Shown piece by piece: positions 13,178-14,057 of a stretch of DNA of 60,000 nucleotides. A model generated the notes under the pieces. It worked only from the letters and a program-made list of their open reading frames with translations, had not been told where the DNA came from and made no database searches. Origin of the DNA: Botryllus schlosseri. Its lineage: Eukaryota. Location of the stretch: contig CM119372.1 in the NCBI GenBank assembly GCA_051294905.1, positions 36,458,001 through 36,518,000 of the forward strand, in the 5' to 3' direction. Within the stretch, counting starts at the first letter, position 1; each line of letters begins with the position of its first letter. The position numbers were made by a program, and so were the translations under genes.

Positions 13178-13249
13178 GGGGATTTAGCTCAGCGGTAGAG
13201 CAGCTGTCTTGCAAGCAGAAGGTCACGGGTTCAATTCCCGTACTCTCCA
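13178..13249 (+). tRNA. tRNA-Ala (anticodon TGC) inside the Polinton
   Basis: Cloverleaf with G3:U70 Ala identity pair, D stem GCTC/GAGC, loop CTTGCAA, T stem ACGGG/CCCGT, discriminator A and downstream T6 terminator. Confidence 0.88.
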
Positions 13250-13318
13250 CTCTTTTTTCCGTTGAAGTGCTAATGACGCAAAGGTGGCGCAATCATTTCA
13301 ATTTGATTATCACTCAGA

Positions 13319-13795
13319 ATGTGTGCTTTGAAAAGACTGTGTTTCGAGCGAGAAAAGTTTCGGAATTGTTCTGATTCTACTATCAAAGCGGGACCGATTG
13401 ACGAATCGAATCTATTTAGTTGGTGGGCAACAATTGAAGGACCCCAAGGAACGCCATACGAAAAAGGAGTGTTTAAAATATTAATAGAATATCCCACAGA
13501 GTATCCGTTTCGACCTCCGAAGATGAGATTTGAAACTCATATATTTCACCCGAACATTAGTGTGAAAGGCACTATATGCGTGGATATTTTGCAGAAGCAA
13601 TGGTCACCAGCGCTAACTACATCAACTGTGCTGCTATCAATATCTTCGTTACTTGGCGCACCAAATCCAAATGATCCTATGAATGCGGAAAGTGCACATC
13701 TCTATCTGGAAGATAGACAACTCTACTTTAAACGCGCTCAGCAATATACCGAACGCTATGCCAGAGTTTCTACCAACTGCGATTTGTCAGCGTGA
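13319..13795 (+). CDS. Ubiquitin-conjugating enzyme E2 (UBE2D/Ubc4-like)
   Basis: GPQGTPYEKGVF, YPFRPPK, FHPN and catalytic Cys in GTICVDILQKQWSPALT; intronless; AATAAA at ~13873. Confidence 0.96.
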   Translation: MCALKRLCFEREKFRNCSDSTIKAGPIDESNLFSWWATIEGPQGTPYEKGVFKILIEYPTEYPFRPPKMRFETHIFHPNISVKGTICVDILQKQWSPALTTSTVLLSISSLLGAPNPNDPMNAESAHLYLEDRQLYFKRAQQYTERYARVSTNCDLSA

Positions 13796-13985
13796 TTACA
13801 ATTATTAAAACTATCATTTGCTTGTGACTTGTTTATGCCTTGTAAATATTAATTGTGGAGCCCCACCTTTGTAATAAAAAAACTCCATAATGTGTCTTTG
13901 TTGGTTATATGAAAAAATAGCGCGAGTTAGTGATTTATTGGCGAAAGATTATTGCACTGATCTGATGCATCTTGACTTGTGCGCT

Positions 13986-14057
13986 GATTCGTTGGTCTAG
14001 GGGTATGATGCTCGCTTTGGGAGCGAGAGGTCCTGGGTTCAAATCCCGGACGAATCT
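13986..14057 (+). tRNA. tRNA-Pro (anticodon TGG) inside the Polinton
   Basis: Body closely matches animal tRNA-Pro (TTGGTCTAGGGGTATGAT..CTCGC TTTGGGA GCGAG AGGTCC..GGTTCAAATCCCGG); acceptor stem GATTCGT/ACGAATC fully paired; TTTT downstream. Confidence 0.93.

Follow-up and report, generated by a model that had tools for sequence, protein, structure and literature searches.

The window analysed here, a stretch of 60,000 nucleotides from contig CM119372.1 of the Botryllus schlosseri genome, contains a virus-like transposon of the Polinton/Maverick type, and inside it two tRNA genes, Ala(UGC) and Pro(UGG), stand on either side of a gene for a ubiquitin-conjugating enzyme E2 (Table 1). This arrangement had been proposed in an initial annotation made from the letters of the sequence alone, and both programs used here agree with it. 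ARAGORN calls exactly two tRNAs in the whole window, both on the forward strand (Ala(tgc) at 13178-13250 and Pro(tgg) at 13986-14057), and Rfam family RF00005 matches both over their full length, with 64.4 bits (E 1e-11) for tRNA-Ala and 58.4 bits (E 4.6e-10) for tRNA-Pro against a gathering threshold of 29. Apart from these two, no Rfam family reaches its threshold within the 60 kb. Both occupy the arm with the accessory genes, where tRNA-Ala lies between an open reading frame (ORF) of 125 amino acids and the E2 gene, tRNA-Pro between the polyadenylation signal of E2 and a convergent block of structural genes. Judged by sequence and structure, both are real tRNA genes of eukaryotic type, part of the element rather than of the host locus, and are predicted to form transcription units separate from that of E2.

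The features named by the synthetase identity rules for Ala and Pro tRNAs are in place, namely G3:U70 together with A73 in tRNA-Ala and G35, G36 and G37 in tRNA-Pro. The G3:U70 pair, the perfect T stem (ACGGG/CCCGT) and the T6 terminator of tRNA-Ala had been pointed out before and are all present; two non-standard pairs in the same gene, U6.C67 and G27.A43, had been passed over. Genes transcribed by RNA polymerase III (Pol III) are recognised by their A- and B-box consensus, which forms the internal promoter, and by a terminating T-run. The B-box pattern GGTTCRANYCC is matched exactly at 13228-13238 and 14036-14046, and the A-box region is that of the host gene in tRNA-Pro and nearly identical to the host's in tRNA-Ala.

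Since Pol III promoter elements sit here within a virus-like element, the two genes might instead yield RNAs without a part in translation, and VA-RNA-like or TMER-like decoys had indeed been offered as an alternative, next to which small-RNA precursors may be placed. In the TMERs of murine gammaherpesvirus 68 an uncharged tRNA-like head leads into pre-miRNA hairpins, and adenovirus VA RNAs are structured RNAs of about 160 nt; as in the genes described here, A and B boxes mark these as Pol III genes within an animal DNA virus genome. Unlike them, the element genes encode complete 72-nt tRNAs with immediate terminators, and the T-runs 3 nt past each gene leave hairpins no room. Cloverleaves, anticodon loops and identity elements are intact throughout, no VA RNA or other such family reaches the Rfam threshold, and none is matched even at E ≤ 5. 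A mascRNA-like match over tRNA-Pro, which would favour a non-translational product, stays at 24.5 bits and thus below its gathering threshold of 42.5. The position of the terminators and the absence of an Rfam match contradict the decoy proposal, and we regard non-translational Pol III RNAs as very improbable products of these genes.

Both tRNAs are readily told apart from those of the host. Host tRNA-Pro-UGG genes, which are dispersed and also stand in large tandem arrays, have the usual animal sequence with the acceptor stem GGCTCGT...ACGAGCC followed by C, and the element gene differs from them at 8 of 72 positions in the window copy and at 7 in most copies. These include two compensatory double changes, G2:C71 to A:U and C3:G70 to U:A, which produce the acceptor GATTCGT/ACGAATC that the initial annotation had contrasted with the common animal form and that we verified against tRNA-Pro genes of the same genome. 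The further changes are U26 to G, U38 to A, C73 to U at the discriminator and, in the window copy, C50 to U. A pattern search for tRNA-Ala-UGC gave 24 matches, 12 of them of the element type, and the two host types that were read differ from the element gene at 20 and 21 of 72 positions. Low covariance scores, which had been named as a possible objection, are not seen: with 56.7 bits for host tRNA-Pro-UGG and 68.3 and 67.7 bits for the two host tRNA-Ala-UGC types, the element tRNAs score like host genes against RF00005.

Throughout the 495-Mb genome, the element tRNA-Ala has 26 matches (26 of 26 candidates scored), none of host type, and those whose surroundings were read all lie in Polinton or apoptosis-gene contexts. 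Element-type tRNA-Pro has 12 full-length matches among the best 40 of 121 candidates, 11 of which belong to copies of the same element family and one to a copy of a sister family. The lack of a short interspersed nuclear element (SINE) body or tail, already remarked upon, holds in view of these matches, and a tRNA-derived SINE head was rejected, as a terminator follows directly after each gene and the copies with surroundings read are element-borne. Because they differ so strongly from the host genes, the element tRNAs are, on this comparison, neither host copies nor recent captures from this genome. As a separate observation on the host side, the tandem tRNA-Pro arrays (L040-L049; G000:C1:30.75-30.80 Mb and C2:39.12 Mb) hold AGG, CGG and UGG genes with a period of about 170 bp and many decayed stems, and one array member (L043:2527-2598) combines a Pro-type body with the anticodon TAG.

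The same differences from the host can be read as counter-defence, with the element tRNAs being variants that escape a tRNA-cleaving or tRNA-depleting antiviral response. More specifically, "private" U34 tRNAs for Ala, Pro and Leu would resist a host depletion of the tRNAs for A-ending codons by means of A38, C32 and the changes in acceptor and discriminator. The anticodon loops do depart from the host's (38 U to A in both genes, 32 U to C in tRNA-Ala), as do the acceptor stems of both and the discriminator of tRNA-Pro, the tRNA-Pro of a further locus, L076 (see below), likewise has G26 and A38, and phages provide precedents, with tRNAs that carry changes in the anticodon loop, in the available text of PMC10264068 and PMC11555353. 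However, no candidate nuclease is known here, a six-frame search of the genome for the Schlafen AlbA_2 domain came back empty (a weak negative, since exons are short), and an ancient origin apart from the host genes could by itself account for the differences. In our estimation escape from such a response is quite improbable as an explanation, and the private-tRNA form of the proposal equally so.

Comparison of the element's copies points to constraint on the tRNAs. A module of 1051 bp comprising tRNA-Ala, E2 and tRNA-Pro occurs 11 times in the genome, the window included, at 89-100% identity, and none of the 11 copies lacks either tRNA, although such absence had been considered when the genes were first noted. 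In the 11-copy alignment 1 of 73 sites is variable in tRNA-Ala and 1 of 72 in tRNA-Pro, together 2 of 145, compared to 39 of 332 in the four spacers next to them (Fisher p = 5.6e-5). Among tRNA-Pro variants two changes occur, each from C to U opposite G, so that pairing is retained as G.U. The run after tRNA-Ala is T6 in nine copies and T5 in two, and the T4 after tRNA-Pro is identical in all 11.

A sister family (family 2) shares the gene order of the window, with amino-acid identities of 87% for the capsid protein and 64% for E2. It accounts for 13 tRNA-Ala matches at 86-88% identity, and its tRNA-Ala differs from that of the window at 10 of 72 positions; in about 20 kb of one copy it is the sole tRNA, Ala(UGC), and stands after E2 at the place that tRNA-Pro takes in the window. 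Family 2 (L014/L016 with L111 and L112, G000:C16) also has a caspase-domain ORF (Pfam PF00656, E 3.5e-11) without a counterpart there in the window element. A survey of related Polintons, suggested by the initial annotation, thus finds tRNA-Ala of the same lineage in the sister family and at two further loci. Lineage L012 keeps tRNA-Ala without E2 and tRNA-Pro, and the single-copy locus L076 (G000:C11:4698713-4699113) has an ORF with three BIR domains (IAP-like) and, after it, a tRNA-Ala(UGC) and a tRNA-Pro(UGG) gene that are divergent and lie on opposite strands, the tRNA-Pro with a third version of the acceptor stem and with G26 and A38 in common with the element type. At L031 (G000:C9:5684435), one of the 13 family-2 copies holds a family-1-type tRNA-Pro beside its death-domain gene. 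None of the other 12 has a tRNA-Pro match at this spot, and the three of them that were sampled show unrelated sequence there, which suggests that tRNA genes are exchanged between Polinton families.

An RNAalifold consensus of element variants and host genes recovers the cloverleaf arms, with both-sided changes at 6 of 19 pairs in tRNA-Ala and 3 of 21 in tRNA-Pro; pair 6:67 of tRNA-Ala is the exception and is mismatched in several lineages as U.C, U.U or C.C. The earlier suggestion that the paired acceptor changes reflect selection on structure is borne out by compensatory changes across lineages and by the low variation relative to the spacers, and the notion that the element maintains the tRNAs as Pol III genes appears supported. 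Very probably, then, these are real, element-borne and constrained tRNA genes, which the element lineage has kept under cloverleaf constraint while they diverged from the host isoacceptors.

Searches beyond this genome were also made. Patterns for the two tRNAs gave 0 matches in viral_contigs, and the tRNA-Ala pattern was found at three metagenome loci (L090-L092), which are arrays of 5-19 tRNAs, with two of the arrays located on contigs of roughly 535 kb; these were rejected as outside relatives, being multi-tRNA arrays and in no case a Polinton. The tRNA-Ala(UGC) genes at these loci have the same anticodon arm as the element's, and the one at L090 also has the GGGGATT/ATTCTCC acceptor found in the element, with a U6.U67 mismatch. 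Sequencing runs labelled as coming from a second organism (X9-X12) share 0.73-0.83 of the words sampled from 12250-14450, and a near-identical element may exist there. Run X9, with a share of 0.83, yielded 0 contigs for this stretch, a negative that can be false.

The element itself is a Polinton/Maverick, characterised by long terminal inverted repeats (TIRs), a 6-bp target-site duplication, an integrase, a packaging ATPase, a capsid protein and a weakly supported protease. The inverted-repeat pair at 11735-12074 and 28836-29175 corresponds to TIRs of 340 nt that are 99% complementary. A copy on contig C14 is identical to the window copy in its interior and has a different left flank, and it is therefore a separate insertion. 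The E2 protein shows about 50% identity to named cellular E2 D/E homologues, and the 125-aa ORF before it has a counterpart preceding E2 in family 2, which is recognised by its place, the likeness being unscored. A Pfam search with the protease ORF gave no match. The two motifs of the 1309-aa ORF are taken by us to be polymerase motifs, while neither Pfam nor PDB gives a polymerase match for it. PHROGs returned nothing for five element proteins, and a search of viral_contigs with the capsid protein gave 0 matches.

Table 1. Features of the element and its surroundings, in window coordinates.
Feature	Position	Strand	Basis and remarks
Left target-site duplication GGGCTC	11739..11744		same hexamer after the right terminus
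Polinton/Maverick (adintovirus-like) element	11745..29165		17,421 bp; termini AGTAGTATGAG... read at the ends
Bcl-2 family gene	12299..12817	+	Pfam PF00452, E 9.3e-20
125-aa ORF without family	12777..13154	+	stops 23 nt before tRNA-Ala
tRNA-Ala(UGC) gene	13178..13249	+	ARAGORN and Rfam; G3:U70, A73, U6.C67, G27.A43
T6 run, Pol III terminator-like	13253..13258	+	3 nt past tRNA-Ala
E2 mRNA 5' ends, likely RNA polymerase II start	13295..13302	+	6 reads at 13295 and 6 at 13300 with adapter-like loose ends, run X20
Ubiquitin-conjugating enzyme E2, D/E-like	13319..13795	+	Pfam PF00179 (UQ_con), E 2e-48; HPN...C active-site motif
AATAAA downstream of E2	13873..13878	+	RNA depth near zero just past it
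tRNA-Pro(UGG) gene	13986..14057	+	A2:U71, U3:A70, G26, A38, U73; C50 to U (G.U) in window copy
T4 run	14061..14064	+	3 nt past tRNA-Pro
Adenain/Ulp1-like cysteine protease, weak support	14844..15296	-	PDB 6lj9_B (African swine fever virus (ASFV) S273R), E 0.0043
Major capsid protein	15293..16570	-	7 homologues, one named major capsid protein (Patella caerulea, 29% identity)
Integrase, rve core and chromodomain	18691..19704	-	Pfam PF00665, E 2e-13; PF00385, E 6.1e-10
A32-like packaging ATPase	20589..21320	-	Pfam PF04665, E 8.5e-10
1309-aa ORF, putative protein-primed DNA polymerase B	21214..25143	-	size, position, motifs DANSLYL and GDTDS by eye
tRNA-Leu(UAA) relic	~26685..26756	+	two internal deletions (part of anticodon stem, part of T arm)
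Death-domain gene	28219..28530	-	Pfam PF00531, E 3.3e-11
Right target-site duplication GGGCTC	29166..29171		read from the sequence

Three observations concern the surroundings of the element. A fragment resembling a tRNA lies just outside its left end, at 11250-11330, and matches the B box exactly at 11298-11308 (GGTTCGATCCC); called neither by ARAGORN nor by Rfam, it has the appearance of a repeat derived from a tRNA. At 48813-55005, long inverted repeats nested in one another (up to 512 nt, 98-99%) suggest another TIR element, and two long hairpins at 6094-6683 and 9883-10475 have sub-threshold Rfam matches to plant miRNA families.

RNA reads bear on how the E2 gene between the two tRNAs is expressed. 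From the raw RNA reads of run X20, 245 were mapped at 95% likeness or above over 2.2 kb of the element (12250-14450), and their source may be any family copy. Depth per orientation is 12-34 at 13286-13803 and 5-11 at 13804-13877, and it is 0 over the left neighbours in all bins (12250-13137) and on the right over 13952-14450. Over the tRNA genes it is 1-2 for Ala and 0 for Pro, which is to be read in light of an mRNA-type library that cannot show tRNAs. With the RNA depth bounded between the two tRNA genes, E2 has a transcription unit to itself. The adapter at the loose ends is presumably the template-switch oligo. Three further ideas on these transcripts were rejected: that the tRNAs punctuate a longer transcript and thereby make the E2 mRNA ends, given 5' ends 45-50 nt past tRNA-Ala and a depth that stops close to the AATAAA, some 90 nt short of tRNA-Pro; that a spliced leader is present, as the loose-end consensus before 13302 (10 reads, agreement 0.6) partly resembles the local sequence and was taken for the upstream region of another copy; and that a contig of run X1 across tRNA-Ala is a sign of transcription, X1 being only guessed to be RNA.

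This layout raises the question of a role in chromatin, in which both genes would act as DNA elements (tDNAs), namely as barriers or promoter-proximal elements that are bound by TFIIIC and Pol III and keep the E2 cassette open while the rest is silenced. Yeast and mammals are known to have tDNAs that act as insulators, and here the two genes bracket E2, the E2 mRNA begins about 45-50 nt downstream of tRNA-Ala and tRNA-Pro marks the boundary of convergent gene blocks; the X20 boundaries of E2 fall between the tDNAs, which is compatible with a barrier but no test of one. The related elements argue in another direction, as family 2 has a single tRNA downstream of E2 and lineage L012 keeps tRNA-Ala without any E2. 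Moreover, factor binding to A and B boxes would not need the compensatory acceptor and anticodon stems or the identity elements that are kept, and since the reads cover only 2.2 kb, silence of the remaining element is a presumption. A chromatin role therefore seems distinctly unlikely to us.

The initial annotation had counted three anticodons in the element, UGC, UGG and UAA, and this holds for the family but not for the window copy, in which the tRNA-Leu(UAA) is a relic. ARAGORN, run with introns or at a 90% threshold, gives only the two genes in the window, Rfam finds no third tRNA at E ≤ 1 over 11000-30000 or at E ≤ 5 over the whole window, and the stretch 26680-26770 folds no better than shuffled sequences (z = +1.4). 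A "Leu(taa)" call inside the Bcl-2 ORF at 12477-12553 was dismissed as noise, ARAGORN at 70% giving 68 calls in 19 kb. In 8 of the 11 copies of the family, ARAGORN calls an intact type II tRNA-Leu(UAA) of 84 nt where the relic stands in the window (loci L093, L094 and L098-L105 examined), and the broken form with the same deletions is found in the window, C14 and C15 copies, which represent at least three insertions of the broken lineage. In other families, seven sampled places match both the relic and the flank upstream of it, and an intact Leu gene is present at one of them and absent from six.

Outside the Polintons, an intact tRNA-Leu(UAA) lies near each end of L110 (G000:C13:14016700-14026600), a near-perfect palindrome of 9.9 kb with arms of 4917 nt that are 100% complementary and without an ORF of 90 aa or more; many similar inverted pairs about 9.5 kb apart were seen among the best 40 of 419 candidates. 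A Polinton derivative was rejected for L110, as only the tRNA is common to it and the window, besides one 58-nt match at 12481-12538, and such palindromes are probably an arrangement of host tRNA-Leu(UAA) genes.

To see how the anticodons relate to codon use, we compared 18 element ORFs (4536 codons) with six intronless conserved host genes (2945 codons, a small sample) and ranked 59 degenerate codons by the ratio of relative use in element over host. The G+C fraction at third codon positions (GC3) is 0.38 in the element and 0.53 in the six host genes. TTA takes second place (0.20 versus 0.10, ratio 2.1, p = 5e-4) and GCA third (0.30 versus 0.14, ratio 2.1, p = 7e-5). What remains at the top of the ranking are T-ending codons, for which standard wobble pairing requires no dedicated tRNA. 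When the comparison is restricted to the seven ORFs with family support, TTA, GCA and CCA rank 5, 6 and 14. Codon compensation accordingly matches two of the three tRNAs, those for TTA and GCA, within the limits of the small host sample. The earlier statement that anticodons for A-ending codons suit an AT-rich genome can be kept in part, as GC3 is low and TTA and GCA are enriched, but the overall G+C of the element is about 0.40 like that of the surrounding sequence and CCA does not follow.

Such compensation would work by a simple route. Host Pol III would transcribe the element tRNAs when the element is expressed, host enzymes would process them, add CCA and charge them, and the additional U34 tRNAs may then raise the decoding capacity for the A-ending codons GCA, CCA and, by way of the tRNA-Leu(UAA) of sibling copies, TTA.

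Several findings weigh against this translational supply. CCA, the codon of tRNA-Pro, is not enriched (0.28 in the element, 0.23 in the host, p = 0.42, rank 21 of 59), the host codon sample consists of six intronless genes only, and the host holds many genes for these same anticodons. The element's coding sequence, with 124 of 2762 sites variable in the 11-copy alignment, is not significantly more variable than the tRNAs (p = 0.09), and pair 6:67 of tRNA-Ala is mismatched, as U.C or U.U, in all family-1 copies. Close families differ in how many tRNAs they have and in where these lie, and the lineage without tRNA-Leu still inserted, so that such tRNAs are not essential for spread. The unenriched CCA, the coding comparison, the 6:67 mismatch, the shifting number and place of the tRNAs and the three of 11 copies that spread with a broken tRNA-Leu, together with the tRNA-Pro gained by one of 13 family-2 copies, speak for passenger genes, which an ancestral element picked up and carried without benefit and which look conserved since the copies are young. 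Against passengers stand the far lower variation of the tRNAs than of the adjacent non-coding spacers in the very same copies and the retention of tRNA-Ala, with pair-preserving changes, in lineages that have diverged to 64% identity in E2; the strong difference from host genes argues against recent capture from this genome, and a capsid-packaged genome of 17 kb would be short of space. We consider passengers unlikely. Element-borne tRNA genes that supply extra decoding for the element are the best explanation overall and, going by sequence comparisons, have a slightly better than even chance of being correct; that translational supply is also the main role of these tRNAs is about an even call.

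Phages and giant viruses are well known to encode tRNAs, and the element tRNAs are a further case of virus- or element-encoded tRNAs. Phage and giant-virus tRNAs likewise differ from the host isoacceptors and have anticodons that suit virus-enriched codons, as holds here for TTA and GCA, and they include variants that escape by changes in the anticodon loop (PMC10264068). Those are bacterial or protist systems; here there is no sign of a host defence that targets tRNAs. Closer relatives are the virophages and polinton-like viruses, for which the accessible part of PMC12220804 gives 558 tRNAs in a set of 8300 genomes and discusses codon compensation. Like the element, they are small (14-40 kb), capsid-encoding relatives of Polintons with one or few tRNAs, but they are protist elements, with His, Leu and Arg in the cryptophyte set (PMC12220804, same text). 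Here, by comparison, the tRNAs are part of a Polinton that bears an integrase and a putative polymerase and resides in an animal-type genome, and the set is Ala, Pro and Leu, all with U34.

As in the element, adintoviruses and other animal Polintons/Mavericks have TIRs, capsid, packaging ATPase and integrase; they also have an adenain-like protease, weakly supported here, and a large DNA polymerase B, of which the 1309-aa ORF is the putative counterpart, and Bcl2 and IAP homologues occur in adintoviruses as accessory genes (PMC8502044, available text). In the same text tRNA genes appear only as flags in a figure legend on animal-associated MELD viruses with other replicases; for canonical adintoviruses it describes no tRNA genes and no pair flanking E2, unlike the element. 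Beyond this flag, a search of the accessible literature gave no description of tRNA genes in canonical animal Polintons/Mavericks, although the supplements of PMC12220804 (S11-S12) and PMC8502044 may list some.

The tRNAs keep company with genes of a particular kind, as the same element carries Bcl-2, E2 and death-domain genes and its relatives carry caspase-like and BIR (IAP-like) genes, which implies that the tRNAs may be part of a host-manipulation cassette. Were the counter-defence reading to apply, a Polinton would keep translating under host shutdown, in an animal counterpart of phage tRNA counter-defence. The close families with one, two or three tRNAs at different positions, and the copies with and without an intact tRNA-Leu, constitute a natural experiment, and the element-specific variants let tRNA sequencing tell element from host tRNAs. 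It thereby becomes testable whether a 17-kb animal virus-like transposon tunes translation or uses its tDNAs as chromatin elements.

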